From positions 1-40,207 of the forward strand of contig JAVVZC010000001.1 in assembly GCA_036650755.1 (NCBI GenBank): a stretch of 40,207 bases of DNA, in the 5' to 3' direction. Made by a program: the position numbers and the translations under genes. Of this stretch, positions 4,420-40,040 are shown piece by piece. The stretch comes from Oscillospiraceae bacterium. Lineage in GTDB: Bacteria > Bacillota > Clostridia > Oscillospirales > Oscillospiraceae. Positions within the stretch are counted from its first letter, which is position 1. Each line of letters opens with the position of its first letter. The notes beneath the pieces were generated by a model. It had not been told where the DNA came from. It did no database searches and worked only from the letters and a program-made list of their open reading frames with translations.

Positions 4420-6540
4420 TTAGTCGGCTACGTCGTGCTCGGGGGCAACGCCCTGAGCTTCGCCGGTGGAGGAGACTTCATAGACAAGAGCGTCGCCTTC
4501 GGAGGCAGGAGCGGCGTGGGGGGCTTCGTTATGCTCCTCGCTGCTGTGCTCAGGCTCGGTGAGGGCACGGATGCTGAGGGAGATTTTTTGTTTGTCGTTG
4601 TCGATGGCGGTGATTTTGACCGTTACGACGTCATCAACAGAGAGAACTTCCTCGGGCTTGCCAACACGGTGAGTTGAAATTTGGGAGATATGGATAAGAC
4701 CGTCAACTCCGGGCATGACCTCGGCAAAGGCGCCGAAGGGCATGAGCTTGACAATTTTGACGTCAACAATGTCGTTAACCTTGTAGGCAGCGGTGAATTT
4801 TGTCCAAGGGTTGCCGTTGGGGTCTTTGTAGCCAAGGGAGATTTTGCGGTTTTCTTTGTCGAAGTTGATAACATAGACTTCGACCTTGTCGCCCACGGTG
4901 AGAACGTCGCCGGGCTGCTTAACGCGGCTCCAGCTCAGCTCGGAGACATGGATCATGCCGTCGATGCCGCCAATGTCGACAAATGCGCCGTAGCCGGTGA
5001 GGGACTTTACGGTGCCGTTGTAGTGCTTGCCGATTTCGATGTCGGACCAGATTTTATCGGAACGCTCACGACGCTCGTCCTTTTGGACGGCGCGGATGCT
5101 GCCGACAACGCGGCGGCGAGCGCGGTTGACTTCGGTAATCTTGAGGCGAACCTTTTGCTTGAGAAGCTCGCTCATGTCGGCTTCCTTGCCAAGACCGGAC
5201 TGGGAAGCGGGAACAAAGACACGGATGCCCTTAACGGAAACAACAACGCCGCCCTTATTGTCCTCTGTGACGATGCCGTCCATGATGGTGCCGTCCTCGA
5301 CAGCAGCTTCAACAACGCTCCAGTTTTTGACAGCGTCAAGACGCTTTTTGGAGAGCATTACGGTGCCCTCAACGTCGTTCACGCGAACAACGCAGGCTTC
5401 GATGGAGTCACCGACCTTGATAAGGTCGTTTATGGAGACGTCGGTGTCGTCGGTGTATTCGGATACGGGAATGTATCCTGAATGCTTTGTGCCCAAATCA
5501 AGGCTGATTTCTGTGGGAGTAATTGCAGCTACAATACCGGTTACCGTATCTCCGTTATATATAGTTTTGATAGATTCCTCCAGCATCTGGTCAAAGGTCA
5601 TTTCCACTTCCGGAGCCACCTCTGCAGCGGGTGCTGCGGGTGTTTCTTCCTTTGTTACCGAGTCAACTGTGGTTTCTTCAATTTTCATGTCATCAGTCAT
5701 CTTGTGTTTTACCTCCTTAATAATCCACGCAGGCGTTGAAGCGCCGGCGGTTATGCCAATAGTTGAAGCCGTTTCAAGAGCCGCCGTGTCCAGCTCCTCC
5801 GCCGAGGAAATGAACTGAACCGTAGCGCAGTGCCGGGAGCAAAGCTCCGCCAGATGAACGCTGTTTGCGCTGTGACGCGCACCGATAACGACCATTGCAC
5901 TGCATACCTTTGAGAGGGCAACAGCATCAGCTTGCCTCGTGGATGTAGCGCAACATATTGTATCAAACACTTCGCAGTTTGTACACTCTTTTTTGATAAT
6001 ATTTTTAGTTTGTTTAAGAATTTCTTGCGTTTGGGTGGTTTGGAACACCAGACTTAGTGCTTTGTGACGGTTATTGGGGTCGTTTTCCAGCCAAGCCTGA
6101 AATTTTTCGGTCTTGTCAAAAACAAAGGCTTCGTCGCAGCGGTCACGAATTGCAACAACCTCGGGGTGATTTTCCGTGCCGATTATAATTGGAGTGCGCC
6201 CCGCCTCCGCCGCCTTGGAAACGATTTCGTGAATTTTTCGAACCTTGGGGCAGGTGGCGTCAACGATGGTGATATTTTTTTCCCGCAGCTTGTCATATTC
6301 GCTTTGGACAACGCCGTGGGAGCGAATAACAGCGCAGGAATTCGGCGGGATTTCATCAGCGCATTGGGCAACGGCAAGCCCACGGCTTTGCAGCTCCCGA
6401 ACCACAAAATCGTTGTGGATAAGTTCGCCCAAGCTATAGCAGGGGCTTTGGGAGCTTTGGAGGGTGTCCTCCGCCAGCTTCACGGAGCGGCTGACGCCAA
6501 AGCAAAAGCCGGCGCTTTCGGCAACAATCAGCTTTTTCAA
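4420..6540 (-). CDS. ispH: Bifunctional 4-hydroxy-3-methylbut-2-enyl diphosphate reductase (IspH/LytB) fused to ribosomal protein S1 (four S1 repeats)
   Basis: The N-terminal part (about 285 aa) is IspH-like: AGFCFGV, ATCPKV, and a third-Cys region [11 protein letters not shown]. Repeated S1 OB-fold modules follow ([19 protein letters not shown]). The start is TTG at 6540-6538, overlapping the plsC stop as TTGA. Confidence 0.9.
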
Positions 6541-34235: not shown

Positions 34236-34264
34236 TTGACATATCCACCTCCAAGGCTTATCAT
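34236..34264 (+). promoter_or_regulatory. Near-consensus sigma-A promoter driving the T-box leader
   Basis: -35 TTGACA (34236-34241), 17-nt spacer, -10 TATCAT (34259-34264). Confidence 0.55.
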
Positions 34265-34270
34265 AGCAAT

Positions 34271-34575
34271 AATTTCATAAAGAACAGCGATGACAAGGAA
34301 GAAGTAACCGTTTCCGAACCAAACAGAAAGCAGCCGGCAGATGAGAGGCGCATGGGAACCCTTCGGTGAATACATCCTTCAGCTTCACACCAAACGGCTT
34401 TTCACCTAGTAGGCTGTGACGACTAACACACGTTAAAGTGTCGGGTCTTTGCCCCCGGTGTCTTTTTGCCGCCCGGGATGAGATTTTAAGGTCAGTTGTG
34501 TGAGCAGCCGGCGAACCAAGGTGGTACCGCGAATTATTTTCGCCCTTCGGATTTTTTTCCGAAGGGCGTTTTTTA
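34271..34575 (+). promoter_or_regulatory. T-box leader (tRNA-sensing transcription-attenuation riboswitch); the specifier most likely reads UAC (Tyr)
   Basis: Stem I base with GA/K-turn motif AGCGATGA (34286-34293). The Specifier Loop has 7-nt AGAAGTA (34300-34306) opposite 7-nt GAA-TAC-A (34368-34374), flanked by helices AAGGA/TCCTT and ACCG/CGGT. Other elements: AG-bulge-like AGAAAG (34325-34330), Stem II TCACA...TGTGA, F-box-like ACGTTAAA (34430-34437), and T-box sequence AACCAAGGTGGTACCGCG (34514-34531). A terminator then precedes the SD and ATG. Confidence 0.85.
34541..34574 (+). terminator. T-box attenuator (intrinsic terminator)
   Basis: Perfect 10-bp stem CGCCCTTCGG / CCGAAGGGCG with an 8-nt loop, then T6. 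It lies 25 nt before the ligase start codon. Confidence 0.85.
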
Positions 34576-34598
34576 TTACAATTTTAGGAGGACTTATC

Positions 34599-36245
34599 AT
34601 GCCAATCACAGAGCTTTTAGAGAACAATGCCAAGAATTTTCCCGACGAAACCGCCCTTGTTGAAATCAACCCCGAACACGAGAAAACTCCCCTTGAAACC
34701 TCGTGGAAGGAATTTAATCTTGTTGAATCAAACTACCGTGAGGACACCTATCGCCGCGAAATTACTTGGCAGGACTTTGACTGCCGCGCCAATCGCTTTG
34801 CCCATTTGCTTTTGGCAAACGGCGTGAAAAAGGGCGACAAGGTTGGCATTTTGCTGATGAACTGCCTTGAATGGCTGCCCATTTACTTCGGCGTTTTAAA
34901 GGCGGGCGCTCTTGCCGTGCCGCTTAACTACCGCTACACCGCGGACGAAATCAAATACTGCCTTGACCTTGCCGACTGCTCCCTTCTCATCTTCGGCAAC
35001 GAATTTACCGAGCGGGTGGGCGCAATTCGAAACGACGTTCCAAAGCTTCACAAGCTGTTTTACGTGGGCGGACGCTGCCCCGATTGGGCGGAGAGCTATT
35101 TTCAACTCATCTCCTACTGCTCCAGCCGCAAGCCCAATGTGGAGCTTTCCGAGGAGGATTTTGCCGCCATCTATTTTTCCTCCGGCACCACAGGCTTTCC
35201 CAAGGCAATTTTGCACAAGCACCAAAGCCTTAGCCATTCCGCAATCACGGAGCAAAAACACCACGGTCAGGAGCGGGGCGATTGCTTTTTGTGTATGCCT
35301 CCCCTCTACCACACCGGCGCAAAAATGCACTGGTTCGGCAGTCTGCTCTCCGCCAGCCGCGCAATTTTGCTTCGGGGCATCAGCCCCAACTGGATTTTAA
35401 AAACAGCCGCCGAGGAGCACGCCAGCAATGTTTGGCTTCTGGTGCCTTGGGCTCAGGACATTTTGGACGCCCTTGATAGGGGCGATATCAAGCTTTCGGA
35501 CTACGACCTTTCCGCATGGCGGCTCATGCACATCGGCGCTCAGCCTGTGCCAAAAAGCCTTATAAACCGCTGGAAAGCCTATTTTCCAAACCACCAATAC
35601 GACACCAACTACGGGCTTTCCGAGTCCATCGGACCCGGCTGTGTGCATTTGGGCGTTGAAAACACCTCAAAGGTGGGCGCAATCGGCAAGGCGGGCTTTG
35701 GCTGGGAAACAAAGGTTGTGGACAGCGAAAAAAACACCGTATCCCAAGGCGCCGTGGGCGAGCTTGCTGTGCGGGGTCCCGGCGTTATGAGCTGCTACTA
35801 CAAAAATGAGGAAGCCACAAAAGAAAGCCTGTCCGAGGACGGCTGGCTTTGGACAGGCGACATGGCGCGGGTGGATGAGGACGGCTTTATTTGGCTGGTT
35901 GACCGCAAAAAGGACGTTATAATCACCGGCGGCGAGAACCTTTACCCTGTGCAAATTGAGGATTTCCTCCGTCAAAACGACAAAATCAAGGACGTTGCCG
36001 TTATCGGCAGACCCCACGAGCGCCTTGGCGAAATTGCAACAGCCATAGTTGAGCTAAAGCCGGGTGTCCAAGCCGACGCCGAGGAGATAAACGAATTTTG
36101 CAAGGCTCTCCCCCGCTATAAGCGCCCACGGGAAATAATCTTCGACACAGTTCCAAGAAACCCAACAGGCAAAATTGAAAAGCCGCTGCTGCGCAAAAAA
36201 TACGGCAGTGTGGACATTGTTTCCATGCAAACCGGCGAGGAATAA
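34599..36245 (+). CDS. AMP-dependent synthetase/ligase (class I adenylate-forming acyl- or aryl-CoA ligase), substrate unknown
   Basis: AMP-binding motif IYFSSGTTGFPKAILHKH, then YGLSES, TGDMARVDEDGFIWLVDRKKDVIITGGENLYP and a C-terminal PRNPTGKIEK. I place the start at ATG 34599, after AGGAGG. The track's GTG at 34500 lies inside the T-box leader. Confidence 0.85.
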   Translation: MPITELLENNAKNFPDETALVEINPEHEKTPLETSWKEFNLVESNYREDTYRREITWQDFDCRANRFAHLLLANGVKKGDKVGILLMNCLEWLPIYFGVLKAGALAVPLNYRYTADEIKYCLDLADCSLLIFGNEFTERVGAIRNDVPKLHKLFYVGGRCPDWAESYFQLISYCSSRKPNVELSEEDFAAIYFSSGTTGFPKAILHKHQSLSHSAITEQKHHGQERGDCFLCMPPLYHTGAKMHWFGSLLSASRAILLRGISPNWILKTAAEEHASNVWLLVPWAQDILDALDRGDIKLSDYDLSAWRLMHIGAQPVPKSLINRWKAYFPNHQYDTNYGLSESIGPGCVHLGVENTSKVGAIGKAGFGWETKVVDSEKNTVSQGAVGELAVRGPGVMSCYYKNEEATKESLSEDGWLWTGDMARVDEDGFIWLVDRKKDVIITGGENLYPVQIEDFLRQNDKIKDVAVIGRPHERLGEIATAIVELKPGVQADAEEINEFCKALPRYKRPREIIFDTVPRNPTGKIEKPLLRKKYGSVDIVSMQTGEE

Positions 36246-36276: not shown

Positions 36277-36320
36277 AAAGAAGCCGGGGAGAAAATTTTT
36301 CTCCCCGGCTTCTTTGTTTT
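36277..36320. terminator. Bidirectional intrinsic terminator shared by the convergent ligase gene and the aro-paaK-ACT operon
   Basis: 15-bp perfect stem AAAGAAGCCGGGGAG / CTCCCCGGCTTCTTT. It is flanked by GTTTT(T) on the plus strand and by GTTTTATGTTTT on the minus strand. It abuts the ACT gene stop codon. Confidence 0.8.
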
Positions 36321-36748
36321 TAGTATTTTACGTCGTCCGCCGTAAGGAGCTTGAAGCCTCGGCTTGTAAGGCTTTCAATCGCTTTTGGCTGGTCGTCGCA
36401 TTTTAGGATGACGGTTGCTTCGCCGCCGATGGGGGTAACAAAGCCGTAGCTGTATTCCACCATGATGTTGTCGGCGGTCAGCGCTGTGAGCGCGTTGTGA
36501 AGGCTGCCCGGCGCGTCGTCCACGGAAAGAGCCACAACGTCGGTTTCGATAACGGTCATGCCCCTGTCCCGAAGTGCCGCAAGGGCGTCCTTTCGCTTGT
36601 CAACGATAAGGCGGACAACGCCAAAATCGGTGGTGTCGGCAATTGACAGCGCCCTGATGTTGATGCCCGCCTCCAGCAGAACACCTGTGATGTCATTGAT
36701 TGCCCCGCGGCGGTTTTCAGCGAAAACCGAGATTTGTTTTAACAGCAT
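36320..36748 (-). CDS. ACT domain-containing protein (small ligand-binding regulatory protein)
   Basis: 142 aa with two ACT-like halves: ISVFAENRRGAINDITGVLLEAGINIRALSIADT and ALSVDDAPGSLHNALTALTADNIMVEYSY. It is translationally coupled 11 nt after paaK, with a GGAGGGG SD. Confidence 0.8.
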   Translation of the reverse strand: MLLKQISVFAENRRGAINDITGVLLEAGINIRALSIADTTDFGVVRLIVDKRKDALAALRDRGMTVIETDVVALSVDDAPGSLHNALTALTADNIMVEYSYGFVTPIGGEATVILKCDDQPKAIESLTSRGFKLLTADDVKY

Positions 36749-36759
36749 AATACCCCTCC

Positions 36760-38073
36760 TTAAAATTTTACCTCACTGCGTTTATCTATAATTCTCTTTG
36801 CCTTGCCCTCAAAGCGCTCAATGCTTTTCGGTTCCACAAGGCGAACCTTTGCGGCGATGCCCAAAACGGAATGAATTTCCTCGGTGACTTTTTTTGTGAT
36901 GGCTTCCAGCTTTCGAACTTCGTCGGTGAACATTTCCTCCGTCAGCTCAACCAAAACTGTAAGCTTGTCAAGGTTTCCTTCCCGCTCAACGATAAGCTGG
37001 AAGAAGGGGGCGATGCCCTCCACGTTCATGAGCACGGATTCGATTTGTGAGGGGAAAACATTGACGCCGCGGATGATGAGCATGTCGTCCGTCCGTCCCG
37101 CGGGCTTCATCATGCGAACCGTGGTTCTGCCGCAGTCGCAGTCGCCCACAAGCCGCATTCCCACGTCGTGGGTGCGATAGCGGACAAGGGGCAGTGCTTC
37201 CTTTGTGAAGCAGGTGAAAACGATTTCACCCTCGGTGCCGTCGGGAACGGGCTGTTCGGTTTCCGGGTCGATGATTTCAAGGAAGAAGTGATCCTCGTTC
37301 ACATGAAGCCCGTTGTGGCATTCGCATTCAAAGGCGACGCCCGGTCCGATAACCTCGGAAAGCCCGTAGATGTCAAAGGCTTCAATGTTCAGGCGGCGTT
37401 CGATTTCCCGACGCATGTTGTCAGTCCAAGGCTCCGCGCCGAAAAATCCGGCTCTCAGGCTTAAGCTGTCGATGGGAAGATTGTTTGCCTCCATAAATTC
37501 CGCGATGGTCAGGGCGTAGGAGGGCGTTGCAAGGATGAAGTTGGGTTTAAAGTCCTGCAAAATTGTGACCTGACGGCGGGTGTTGCCCGTGGAGGCGGGA
37601 ATTGTGGCGCAGCCCAAGGTTTCGGAGCCAAGCCCGCCGCCCATGCCGCCTGTGAAAAGCCCATAGCCGTAGCTGATGTGCCCGATGTCGGATTTTGTAA
37701 TGCCCCCCGCGCCCAAAGTGCGCGCCATAACTTCACCCCAAAGCGCCATGTCGTTTCGGGTGTAGCCCACAACGGTTTGCTTGCCTGTGGTGCCCGAGGA
37801 GGCGTGCAGCCGAACAACCTCGTCCATGGGCACGGCGAAAAGTCCAAAGGGATAATTGTCTCTCAAATCCTGCTTGTAGGTGAAGGGTAATTTTGTAATA
37901 TCGTCAATGGAGCGGATGTCATCGGGGCTGACGCCCGCTTCGTCAAATCTTTTTCGGTAGAGTGGGACGTTTTCGTACACACGGTGAACCATTGCCACAA
38001 GTCTTTCGCTTTGCAGCTCCCGCATTTGCTCTCGGGGCATGGTTTCAGCCTCGACATTTTTGATGTGATACAT
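36760..38073 (-). CDS. paaK: Phenylacetate-CoA ligase family protein (PaaK-like)
   Basis: 437 aa. The N-terminal MPREQMRELQSERLVAMVHRVYENVPLYRKRFDEAGV, KLPFTYKQDLRDNYPFGLFAV and adenylation motif HASSGTTGKQTVV are characteristic of the PaaK family. Confidence 0.85.
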   Translation of the reverse strand: MYHIKNVEAETMPREQMRELQSERLVAMVHRVYENVPLYRKRFDEAGVSPDDIRSIDDITKLPFTYKQDLRDNYPFGLFAVPMDEVVRLHASSGTTGKQTVVGYTRNDMALWGEVMARTLGAGGITKSDIGHISYGYGLFTGGMGGGLGSETLGCATIPASTGNTRRQVTILQDFKPNFILATPSYALTIAEFMEANNLPIDSLSLRAGFFGAEPWTDNMRREIERRLNIEAFDIYGLSEVIGPGVAFECECHNGLHVNEDHFFLEIIDPETEQPVPDGTEGEIVFTCFTKEALPLVRYRTHDVGMRLVGDCDCGRTTVRMMKPAGRTDDMLIIRGVNVFPSQIESVLMNVEGIAPFFQLIVEREGNLDKLTVLVELTEEMFTDEVRKLEAITKKVTEEIHSVLGIAAKVRLVEPKSIERFEGKAKRIIDKRSEVKF

Positions 38074-38101
38074 TTGCTAATTCCTTCTTCTGTGAGTTTT
38101 T

Positions 38102-38548
38102 TTATTTTTCGGATACAGCCGGCTCCTTGTCGGTGAGTATGTGAAGTGCTTCGATGTAGCCCTCAAAGCCACGCCCGCAAATGGATTTGAGACAGGCACG
38201 CCTAGTGATGGAAACGTGGCGGAATTCCTCGCGAATTCCCGGGTTTGAAAGATGAACCTCGATGGTGGGCAGGTCAACAGCCTTCAGCGCGTCCAAAATT
38301 GCAATGCTGGAATGGGCATAGGCGGCGGGGTTGATGATAATTCCGTCAATCCGCCCCAAAGCGCTCTGAATTGCGTCCACCAAATCGCCCTCGTGGTTGC
38401 TCTGATAAAATTCCACCTCCACGTCAAGCTTTTCGGCTTCATTTTTTATGTGTGACAGCAGGTCAGCATAGCTGCGGTTTCCATAGATTTTTGGTTCGCG
38501 AATTCCCAAAAGGTTGATGTTTGGACCGTTAATTACCAATATTTTCAT
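38102..38548 (-). CDS. aroQ: Type II 3-dehydroquinate dehydratase
   Basis: MKILVINGPNINLLGIREPKIYG..., QSNHEGDLVD, INPAAYAHSSIAILDA and IEVHLSN motifs. The real start is ATG 38548, after GGAGGA. The track's 212-aa ORF is an artefactual N-terminal extension. Confidence 0.9.
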   Translation of the reverse strand: MKILVINGPNINLLGIREPKIYGNRSYADLLSHIKNEAEKLDVEVEFYQSNHEGDLVDAIQSALGRIDGIIINPAAYAHSSIAILDALKAVDLPTIEVHLSNPGIREEFRHVSITRRACLKSICGRGFEGYIEALHILTDKEPAVSEK

Positions 38549-40040
38549 AGTAGTCCTCCAAAATAAGCTTTGCGGTTTCGGGGATTGTGCCGTTGTTTCC
38601 GATTGCCACATCGGCAAAATCCAAATACATGGGCACACGCTCTCTGCGCATTTGGAACAGGGCGTCAAAGTCCTTGGAGAGTGGTCTGCCCTCCAAAGCC
38701 AGCTTTTCCATGGGTCGGAGCAGGCAGTATATGCGCCCATTTTGACGCAGTGGGCAGTAGTTTTGCATTGACTTCACAACTCCGCCGCCTGTTGCGATGA
38801 CACAGCCGGTTTGTGCGCCCGCTAAGATGGTTTCCTGCTTTTCAAGCTGACGAAAGCCCTCCTCGCCCAGCTCGGCAAAAAGCTGTGCAACGGGTTTTCC
38901 CGCTGTTTTTTCGATTTCATCGTCAATGTCGATAAATCGGCGGTCGGTCACATTTGCAATTTCCTTGCCGATGGTGGTTTTTCCGCTGCCCGGCATTCCA
39001 ACGATTATGATATTTCCGCATTGGGCACGGAGCTTTGGCAGAATTTTCAGCGCCTCGCCCTCGGCGATGTTCACGTCCAAAAAAAGGCGGGCGGCGATAA
39101 GTGCCTGATAAACCAGCATGGGCAGTCCGTCGGTGGCGGGAATTCCCCGTGCCTCGGCGTCCATAATAAGCATTGTGCGGCGAGGGTTGTAAACCATGTC
39201 AAAAACACCCTCGCAGCATGTAAATCGTTCAAGGGACATGATGGTTTCAAGGTTCCCCGGGAACATGCCCACAGGCGTTGCGTTGATTATTATTTGAGAA
39301 TTGGCGTAGGCGTCCAAATTTCCGTAATTCACTTTCCCTGTTCGGGAAACAACGGTAACGGAGGCGGCACCCATTCTTTTTGAAGCCGCAACAGCCGCAA
39401 GAGACGCTCCGCCGCTTCCGAAAACAAGCACCCGCTTGTCCGTAAAATCAAGCTTTGCCAGCTTTGCCGCGAAAATAAAGCCACCCAAATCCGTGTTGTA
39501 GGCGCAAAGTCTGCCATCGGAGCGGCGTACAAGAGTGTTGGCGCAGCCGGTTTCCCGAACCTCATAGCTCAATTCGTCGCAAAGGGGCACCACATCCCGC
39601 TTGAAGGGCATGGTGACATTCAAGCCGCTAAAACCTACATCCCCAAGAATGTCCTTGAGCCGATCCCCGGTGGTTTCGATTAGCTTATAGTTTCTTATAC
39701 CCAGCATTTCGTAAATTTGGGGGGAAAAGCTGTGAGCCAAATGCTCGCCCAAAAGCCCGAATTTTGGGGGATTTTCCGACAAAGGCGTCAGCGTGCCCTG
39801 ATACTCTCGGGAAAGACTGAGCATTTCTTCAAAAAGTCGGCAGGAATAGCTCGCCATATCGGCGCTTTTTTCGCTGACGCGGGATAAAATATTTGCCTCC
39901 CGTGCCGGGTCCAAAATATTTTTTCCGCAGGCGGCTTTTTGCATAAAAATCTGAGCGCAAAGCTCCATTCTGCAAAGAAAAAGCTCCAATATTTGGGTGT
40001 CAATATCGTCAATCATGTTTCTTGCTTCATCTATATTCAC
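38529..40040 (-). CDS. aroE: Trifunctional fusion: chorismate mutase (AroQ-class CM_2), shikimate dehydrogenase (AroE) and shikimate kinase (AroK)
   Basis: Residues 1-80 look CM-like: R.MID.ID..IL.L...R......QK......ILDPAREANIL. Residues about 93-340 look AroE-like: HSFSPQIY, NVTMPFKRDV, NTDLGGF, VFGSGGAS. Residues about 341-503 look AroK-like: IIIVGMPGSGKTTIGKEIA, DIDDEIE, IATGGG. Confidence 0.85.
   Translation of the reverse strand: MNIDEARNMIDDIDTQILELFLCRMELCAQIFMQKAACGKNILDPAREANILSRVSEKSADMASYSCRLFEEMLSLSREYQGTLTPLSENPPKFGLLGEHLAHSFSPQIYEMLGIRNYKLIETTGDRLKDILGDVGFSGLNVTMPFKRDVVPLCDELSYEVRETGCANTLVRRSDGRLCAYNTDLGGFIFAAKLAKLDFTDKRVLVFGSGGASLAAVAASKRMGAASVTVVSRTGKVNYGNLDAYANSQIIINATPVGMFPGNLETIMSLERFTCCEGVFDMVYNPRRTMLIMDAEARGIPATDGLPMLVYQALIAARLFLDVNIAEGEALKILPKLRAQCGNIIIVGMPGSGKTTIGKEIANVTDRRFIDIDDEIEKTAGKPVAQLFAELGEEGFRQLEKQETILAGAQTGCVIATGGGVVKSMQNYCPLRQNGRIYCLLRPMEKLALEGRPLSKDFDALFQMRRERVPMYLDFADVAIGNNGTIPETAKLILEDYYENIGN

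Follow-up and report, generated by a model that had tools for sequence, protein, structure and literature searches.

The T-box riboswitch that precedes tyrS in Bacillus subtilis, the prototype of Rfam family RF00230, is the closest described counterpart of the leader reported here, which lies at positions 34236-34598 of a 40,207-nt stretch of an Oscillospiraceae genome (the window), directly ahead of a gene for an acid-CoA ligase of the class I adenylate-forming (ANL) superfamily. The two leaders have the same architecture, the same logic, and the same tyrosine (Tyr) specifier. They differ in that the gene downstream in the window encodes an acid-CoA ligase rather than an aminoacyl-tRNA synthetase (in relatives of the window, the downstream genes form an array of transporter, ligase, and indolepyruvate:ferredoxin oxidoreductase [IOR]), and in that the window family carries a conserved extra hairpin between Stem IIA/B and Stem III. 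The surveyed targets of Tyr T-boxes are tyrS, tyrosine biosynthesis, phenylalanine hydroxylase, and an NhaC-type transporter, with no CoA ligase or oxidoreductase among them (PMC2494555). In the Bacillus cereus group, the nonsynthetase Tyr T-boxes control a tyrosine biosynthesis operon, phenylalanine-4-hydroxylase, and an NhaC-type transporter, and they likewise raise the tyrosine supply via biosynthesis, phenylalanine conversion, or uptake (PMC2494555), whereas the route that we propose here would begin with a fermentation acid and not with chorismate or phenylalanine. The TBDB paper also mentions no CoA ligase or oxidoreductase under T-box control (PMC7778990). A preliminary description of this DNA had proposed that a T-box-regulated acyl-CoA ligase may be new, and this is consistent with the searchable literature, including both T-box surveys (PMC2494555, PMC7778990); we found no T-box tied to an acyl-CoA ligase or to IOR in a search that did not cover Vitreschak et al. 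2008, where such a pairing may already be listed. The RNA belongs to a known class, and the type of regulon is new.

With respect to the chemistry, the IOR-dependent assimilation of aryl acids in Methanococcus maripaludis and Bacteroides follows the same course that we propose here, from an aryl acetate through arylacetyl-CoA and arylpyruvate to the amino acid. Aryl acids enter an IOR-dependent second pathway to the aromatic amino acids in M. maripaludis (work cited in PMC4162585). The AMP-forming ligases linked to IOR in Bacteroides proved to be arylacetate-CoA ligases, and a biosynthetic role was suggested for IOR there (PMC13285125). Rumen cultures also produce phenylalanine (Phe) from phenylacetate (PMC7356843). 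The system described here differs from those of M. maripaludis and Bacteroides in that its ligase is a FadD/4CL-type class I enzyme of ~548 amino acids (aa) rather than a PaaK-type enzyme, in that the genome of the window keeps the ligase apart from IOR, and in that no riboswitch control is described for the known systems. We considered whether the ligases of PMC13285125 belong to the family of the window ligase and rejected this, given that the cluster 2/3-linked enzymes are ADP-forming (PF13607) and the named phenylacetate (PA)-CoA ligase is paaK. FadD5 and FadD13 of Mycobacterium tuberculosis, feruloyl-CoA synthetase, and the 4-coumarate-CoA ligases share the ANL fold family and core motifs with the window ligase (E values of 1e-73 to 1e-47 over nearly the full length), whereas its context of aromatic amino acid genes, IOR, and a T-box is unlike that of fatty acid or phenylpropanoid catabolic clusters.

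The leader RNA and its relatives

Window positions 34236-34598 comprise a promoter, a full-length T-box leader, and an 11-bp terminator, and the coding sequence of the ligase comes next. The features are as follows.

34236-34264 (+): sigma-70-type promoter TTGACA-17-TATCAT, matching 11 of 12 consensus positions in a consensus scan
34287-34383 (+): Stem I, from the Rfam alignment and the minimum-energy fold; helices 1 to 5 all covary
34287-34293 (+): K-turn GCGATGA, within Stem I
34300-34306 and 34368-34374 (+): Specifier Loop, 7 nt per side, 5' AGAAGUA and 3' GAA-UAC-A
34325-34329 (+): AG bulge AGAAA, within Stem I
34336-34346 (+): Stem I distal loop
34371-34373 (+): specifier codon UAC (Tyr) at the RF00230 specifier position, followed by the conserved purine, A, at 34374
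34386-34418 (+): Stem II, from the Rfam alignment; helix 6, with compensatory change in 4 of 6 pairs
34419-34441 (+): Stem IIA plus IIB pseudoknot; IIB (helix 8) is 100% paired and covaries in 4 of 4 pairs, and IIA is conserved
34431-34435 (+): F-box CGUUA, within the Stem IIA/B region
34442-34489 (+): lineage-specific extra hairpin in the linker from Stem IIA/B to Stem III, an insertion relative to RF00230
34492-34511 (+): Stem III; helix 9, with compensatory change in 7 of 7 pairs
34514-34531 (+): T-box sequence AACCAAGGTGGTACCGCG, with the UGGU bulge at 34522-34525
34514-34547 (+): T-box sequence plus antiterminator, with helix A1 AAGG/CCUU, the 7-nt bulge UGGUACC at 34522-34528, and helix A2 GCGA/UCGC
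34541-34574 (+): intrinsic terminator with an 11-bp stem, a 6-nt loop, and U6; the stem-loop is at 34541-34568, followed by T6
34586-34591 (+): ribosome-binding site AGGAGG, 7 nt before the ATG, read from the sequence
34599-36245 (+): ANL (class I adenylate-forming) acid-CoA ligase, 548 aa by translation, with its ATG at 34599-34601

The promoter, K-turn, Specifier Loop, AG bulge, Stem II, F-box, T-box sequence, and AGGAGG named in the preliminary description were each found where it had placed them. The terminator with its T6 is also present, with 11 pairs in the stem instead of the 10 given earlier, and an ATG does follow the AGGAGG, at 34599-34601 and not at 34600.

A local scan with RF00230 aligned window positions 34281-34550 to model positions 1-219, the full length of the model, at 77.1 bits (E = 4.8e-17). 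The Rfam gathering score of this family is 93 bits, and a default scan of the whole window at the gathering threshold returned no match. The deficit arises because the alignment counts ~50 nt following the F-box as an insertion, whereas the canonical elements align well: the Stem I set, Stem II, the IIA/B pseudoknot, Stem III, and a UGGN antiterminator overlapping a terminator are all present, as expected of RF00230. To place the leader among its relatives, orthologues of the ligase were searched for with one genome per species, which turned up 591 loci encoding one; the 80 best (L001-L080) were retrieved, and all counts out of 80 below refer to these best 80 of the 591 loci. Of these, 13 have the T-box core GGTGGTACC[AG]CG immediately ahead of the ligase gene, and 10 more have it 1.6 to 2.5 kb upstream on the same strand, so that a Tyr T-box is found upstream of and co-oriented with ligase arrays in 23/80 loci. 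Two further loci (L081 and L083), whose ligases are 81 to 82% identical to that of the window, have retained the leader in another chromosomal context, and 25 homologous leaders upstream of orthologous ligases were found in total. When sister leaders were scored against RF00230, 11 of the 13 tested exceeded the gathering score, at 106 to 133 bits; the leader of L001, like that of the window, falls under the threshold owing to an extra hairpin. By these alignments, the window leader is a diverged representative of a bona fide T-box family, and leaders such as this one, which are overlooked at the Rfam default threshold, are likely underannotated.

The remaining 57 of the 80 loci, which carry the ligase or an SSF-ligase-iorAB array (SSF being a sodium:solute symporter), are without a T-box or another Rfam-detectable leader (e.g., L005, L013, L014, L023, L052, and L062), and they include Ruminococcus albus KH2T6 (L047) and metagenome-assembled genomes (MAGs) of R. 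flavefaciens. An nhmmer profile built from the homologous leaders revealed no hidden copies at the T-box-less loci and matched only two unrelated T-boxes, and an Rfam scan of the T-box-less orthologous loci found no other riboswitch.

An alignment of 24 leaders (A2; mean column identity of 54%), onto whose columns the canonical helices were written, was used to measure pairing and covariation. Standard pairs are formed in 87.9% of the cells, compared to 36 to 47% when the partners are slid by 1 to 3 columns; compensatory double changes occur in 36 of the 46 pairs, and none of 500 shuffles reached the observed values. A chance explanation of the T-box match is far exceeded. The terminator is 86.5% paired across the family and covaries in 7 of its 11 pairs, GGUGGUACC is invariant, and a TTGACA/TATAAT-like pair occupies the equivalent place in most of the 24 leaders. 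The extra hairpin (A2 columns 199-245) has a base helix that is 91.7% paired, with covariation in 5 of 5 pairs. Its length varies in the family from about 20 to 70 nt and is 45 to 50 nt in the window, where its register is shifted by one column relative to the family, as we read the alignment. Within the long form of this hairpin in the window's subclade lies a terminator-like hairpin with CTTTTTG at 34438-34461.

The antiterminator, AAGG-UGGUACC-GCGA...UCGC-CCUU, spans 34518-34547 (helices 10 and 11 in the covariation test), and its 3' side overlaps the 5' arm of the terminator, with 34541-34547 common to both. The terminator fold has an energy of -22.3 kcal/mol (z = -5.9), compared to about -6.7 kcal/mol for the antiterminator, which is weak by itself; therefore, the default state is OFF. 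This default-OFF design, which needs the tRNA to stabilize the antiterminator, is the usual one for T-boxes. The minimum-energy fold of Stem I alone (34287-34384) recovered the 7/7 Specifier Loop and the canonical Stem I helices, and that of the whole leader was unexceptional (z = -1.09) and noncanonical. A poor whole-leader fold is expected because the switch is tRNA dependent, and hence we did not count it as contrary evidence.

We considered whether the leader could be a decayed T-box or a chance look-alike, with the ligase expressed constitutively or from another promoter. The subthreshold Rfam score, the whole-leader z score, and the second terminator-like hairpin inside the insertion could all be cited for this view. 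However, the match covers the full model at an E value of 4.8e-17 with all functional elements intact, the score deficit is due to one insertion that is itself a conserved helix, compensatory covariation is seen family-wide, and a strong promoter immediately precedes the leader, with the terminator between it and the gene. We regard a decayed or chance element as extremely improbable.

The identity of the amino acid sensed depends on the position of the specifier. In the RF00230 alignment, GAA-UAC-A is followed by the closing helix AGGA/UCCU, which makes UAC the specifier. None of the 24 leaders in A2 departs from this codon, nor do L081 and L083 (GAAUACA), giving 26/26 with the window included, and the helices flanking it in A2 covary while UAC stays fixed. 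The surrounding nucleotides are less constant: GAA is altered in the leaders of L003 and L019, a C replaces the purine after UAC in L012 and L061, and the loop of L040 is longer by one base, with an extra U before the retained UAC. The antiterminator bulge is UGGU in every leader, and such a bulge would be expected to pair with tRNAs whose discriminator is A73, bacterial tRNA-Tyr among them. If the specifier had been misread, the codon in use would be another triplet of GAAUACA that overlaps UAC, such as AUA (Ile), ACA (Thr), or AAU (Asn). The codon has indeed been assigned by a positional rule rather than by experiment, and the changes in L012, L061, and L040 could be taken to favor such a shift. 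Nonetheless, the Rfam alignment places UAC at the specifier with GAA as the conserved S-turn element, UAC is invariant even in the longer loop of L040, the textbook A73 of tRNA-Tyr suits UGGU, and the aromatic gene context described below suits Tyr and not Ile, Thr, or Asn. A misread specifier is thus very improbable.

The preliminary description had read this region as a complete Tyr (UAC) T-box controlling the ligase, a claim borne out by the full-length RF00230 alignment, the sister leaders over threshold, and covariation in every helix. Both of the sequence checks that it had suggested also came out in its favor: the RF00230 search gave a significant full-length match with UAC at the specifier position, at a score below gathering, and the alignment of orthologous leaders gave UAC in 26/26 with covarying flanking helices. 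On this basis, window positions 34236-34598 almost certainly represent a class I transcriptional T-box attenuator with a Tyr specifier, and we would expect the leader to respond to uncharged tRNA-Tyr in vivo.

The ligase and its gene neighborhoods

The ligase carries both domains of the ANL superfamily (PF00501 at 242 bits and PF13193 at 47.5 bits), and the core motifs SSGTTGFPK, YGLSE, TGD, and PTGK are readable in its translation; with the N- and C-domains and the core motifs present, it belongs to the superfamily. Beyond that level, it reached none of the NCBIfam equivalog cutoffs, with all 25 listed families below cutoff; the best match was the generic PRK06187 (long-chain-fatty-acid-CoA ligase) at 396 bits versus a cutoff of 476. 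The closest solved relatives in a PDB search were FadD5, FadD13, and feruloyl-CoA, malonyl-CoA, and 4-coumarate-CoA ligases. Assignment as a PaaK-type enzyme (TIGR02155) was rejected, given that the protein has PF13193 and not PF14535 and is 548 aa long versus about 430 aa. The family is large in Oscillospiraceae-type Clostridia, with relatives encoded in at least 591 species-level genomes, and these relatives are typically named generically or as fatty-acid-CoA ligases. Ligases that are 66 to 67% identical to that of the window, in a Clostridia-like context, also occur in L027, L032, L033, L050, L060, L069, and L077, which are labeled as Victivallaceae, Lentisphaeria, Thermoguttaceae, planctomycete, Smithella, or Chloroflexota MAGs; these non-Clostridia labels probably reflect binning contamination rather than the true distribution of the family.

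The genes that adjoin the orthologues are informative as to function. The genes iorA and iorB, for IOR, follow the ligase or ligase-SSF in 31/80 loci, and in many genomes they lie directly downstream of orthologues that are 65 to 70% identical to the window ligase, with ligase-iorA gaps of 4 to 30 nt. Both subunits exceed their family cutoffs (IorA at 728 bits versus 651 for TIGR03336; IorB at 292 versus 230). A gene for an SSF symporter adjoins the ligase in 32/80 loci by tblastn, and a PaaK-type ligase gene, with or without an ACT-pair gene, follows in 14/80. Where the T-box is 1.6 to 2.5 kb distant from the ligase, the intervening gene encodes an SSF symporter (PF00474) of ~510 aa, such that the Tyr T-box stands in front of SSF-ligase in 10 loci, usually with gaps of <50 nt. 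The 23 T-box loci include SSF in 15, iorAB in 10, and paaK in 6, and the fullest order, as in L034, is T-box(Tyr)-SSF-(amidohydrolase)-ligase-iorA-iorB-paaK-ACT. These co-oriented arrays would each be expected to form a single transcript.

Some of the T-box arrays contain an Amidohydro_2 (PF04909) gene between SSF and the ligase (L034:4184-4999, + strand; also L049, L071, and L042), a family that includes reversible (de)carboxylases of hydroxyaromatic acids. L081 and L083, which belong to the subclade closest to the window, each have a gene for a class IV aminotransferase (PF01063) just downstream of the ligase and convergent with it (L081:11711-12778 and L083:12562-13629, both on the - strand), as well as genes for LysR-type regulators on the upstream side. 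This aminotransferase could carry out the last reaction, in which arylpyruvate becomes the amino acid.

In the window, the T-box is followed by the ligase gene alone, which converges on a minus-strand aromatic amino acid cluster at 36320-40040, which is made up of the following genes.

36320-36748 (-): ACT-pair protein
36760-38073 (-): PaaK-like phenylacetate-CoA ligase, TIGR02155 at 581 bits versus a cutoff of 646
38102-38740 (-): type II dehydroquinase (aroQ); the open reading frame (ORF) overlaps the fusion gene, and the true start is probably internal
38529-40040 (-): chorismate mutase/shikimate dehydrogenase/shikimate kinase (CM/AroE/AroK) triple fusion

The genes for PaaK and the ACT-pair protein are apparently cotranscribed with the shikimate genes, which suggests that de novo synthesis and aryl acid salvage are coupled.

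These neighborhoods bear on the view that the enzyme is an ordinary ligase of fatty or other acyl acids without a role in tyrosine supply, its T-box having been acquired by leader shuffling as a general starvation signal or as noise. In favor of this view, the top NCBIfam and PDB matches are to long- and medium-chain fatty-acyl-CoA ligases, and 57/80 orthologues have no T-box. However, those matches are all below the family cutoffs, and the pairing of T-box and ligase has been kept across leaders of 54% identity and in differing genomic contexts, indicating selection. The linkage to iorAB, paaK, and ACT, together with the shikimate genes of the window, is also specific to aromatic amino acids, and in the genomes surveyed, the T-box specifier agreed with the role of the gene behind it in every case where that role had been verified (PMC2494555). 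We therefore consider an ordinary fatty acid enzyme improbable.

A proposed route from 4-hydroxyphenylacetate to tyrosine

We propose that the window gene encodes a putative 4-hydroxyphenylacetate-CoA ligase because the Tyr T-box occurs together with linkage to iorAB, SSF, and paaK. Activation of 4-hydroxyphenylacetate (HPA) is the most economical function, given that the T-box signals a shortage of charged tRNA-Tyr and that AMP-forming ligases drive the synthesis of CoA esters. HPA is an abundant fermentation product of the gut and rumen, where it is excreted by tyrosine fermenters, and it is a precursor of p-cresol. In the proposed mechanism, transcription would start a few bases after the -10 box, and by default, the 11-bp terminator at 34541-34574 would form and halt RNA polymerase 25 nt before the start codon of the ligase. 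When tyrosine is scarce, uncharged tRNA-Tyr would dock on Stem I, with its anticodon GUA pairing with UAC at 34371-34373 and its elbow stacking on the distal platform of Stem I. The free 3' NCCA end would then pair with UGGU at 34522-34525, which would stabilize the weak antiterminator and allow read-through into the ligase gene. The ligase would convert imported HPA to 4-hydroxyphenylacetyl-CoA, which IOR, presumably running in the direction of reductive carboxylation, would convert to 4-hydroxyphenylpyruvate, and transamination would yield tyrosine. We favor this full account, from the tRNA-Tyr T-box through the HPA ligase and IOR to tyrosine, and judge it probable, although well short of assured. 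The preliminary description had already suggested HPA activation followed by reductive carboxylation; the synteny with iorAB, paaK, ACT, and SSF and the Tyr T-box now lend this independent support, with the substrate deduced from that context rather than proven.

Several observations weigh against the account. The window leader lies under the Rfam gathering threshold (77.1 versus 93 bits), and the T-box is present in only 23/80 orthologous loci. There is no IOR or SSF gene within the 40-kb window, which means that the gene for the partner enzyme must lie in another part of the genome. Neither the window nor 52 loci contained a tRNA-Tyr gene against which the anticodon and discriminator could be checked. 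Judged by its sequence, the ligase fits no characterized subfamily, and homology alone gives no arylacetate substrate. Finally, many of these operons already include a PaaK-type ligase, and a second one makes sense only if the two are assumed to divide the substrates between them.

A different substrate deserves consideration with these points in mind. Under the same T-box, the ligase could be a broad arylacetate enzyme acting on phenylacetate, indoleacetate (IA), and HPA, or it could act on another 4-hydroxyphenyl acid, such as 3-(4-hydroxyphenyl)propionate, 4-coumarate, 4-hydroxyphenyllactate, or 4-hydroxybenzoate, and lead to tyrosine by another pathway. Feruloyl-CoA synthetase and 4-coumarate-CoA ligases are among its closest solved relatives, known IOR-associated ligases take PA, HPA, and IA alike (PMC13285125), and the Amidohydro_2 gene between SSF and the ligase in some operons could hint at another aromatic compound. 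On the other hand, the strictly Tyr specifier in 26/26 leaders argues for a benefit specific to tyrosine; the direct ligase-iorA junction (4 to 30 nt) suggests that the substrate of IOR is the CoA ester and thus an arylacetyl-CoA; and the co-encoded PaaK would already cover phenylacetate. Moreover, neither coumarate nor hydroxybenzoate is known to us to be converted to tyrosine anaerobically. A broader or different substrate is therefore possible but rather unlikely in our estimation, and HPA remains the substrate that we propose.

Extended to the gut and rumen relatives, this proposal describes a tyrosine salvage regulon in Oscillospiraceae, Acutalibacteraceae, and Ruminococcus-type Clostridia, consisting of an SSF importer, a FadD-type HPA-CoA ligase, a reductive IOR, PaaK, and ACT, and we see the chances that it holds in this form as evenly balanced. 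If it does, this would be the first riboswitch-controlled pathway of an acyl-CoA ligase and a 2-oxoacid:ferredoxin oxidoreductase, and it would provide candidate genes for the decades-old finding that rumen and gut anaerobes reductively carboxylate aryl acids to aromatic amino acids. It would also imply cross-feeding, in which HPA released by tyrosine fermenters is recycled to tyrosine by these Clostridia. A T-box specifier is a rare sequence feature in that it names the amino acid served; here, it assigns tyrosine to a large, unannotated ligase family and links tyrosine to IOR operons; which way these run physiologically in gut bacteria is debated. If the proposal holds, the known T-box regulon would be extended beyond synthetases, classical biosynthesis, and transporters.

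Other observations

A second T-box with a CUC (Leu) specifier lies at L080:815-1072 (+) and scores 95.7 bits against RF00230, above the gathering score. The gene downstream (L080:1111-3657, +) encodes an AP_endonuc_2 domain (a xylose-isomerase-like TIM barrel) fused to an AMP-binding ligase, with an in-frame stop at 2971-2973, and the orthologue of the window ligase in the same locus is without a T-box. Because of this Leu-specifier T-box and its AMP-ligase, control of acid-CoA ligases by T-boxes is perhaps not limited to tyrosine; it hints at a wider class of such ligases that salvage fermentation acids to amino acids, possibly isovalerate to Leu.

The remainder of the window consists of housekeeping genes. 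Among them is a single 706-aa ORF at 4420-6540 (-) that joins an IspH (LytB) domain to four S1 RNA-binding domains. This IspH-S1 fusion is a known clostridial type and is unrelated to the T-box finding.

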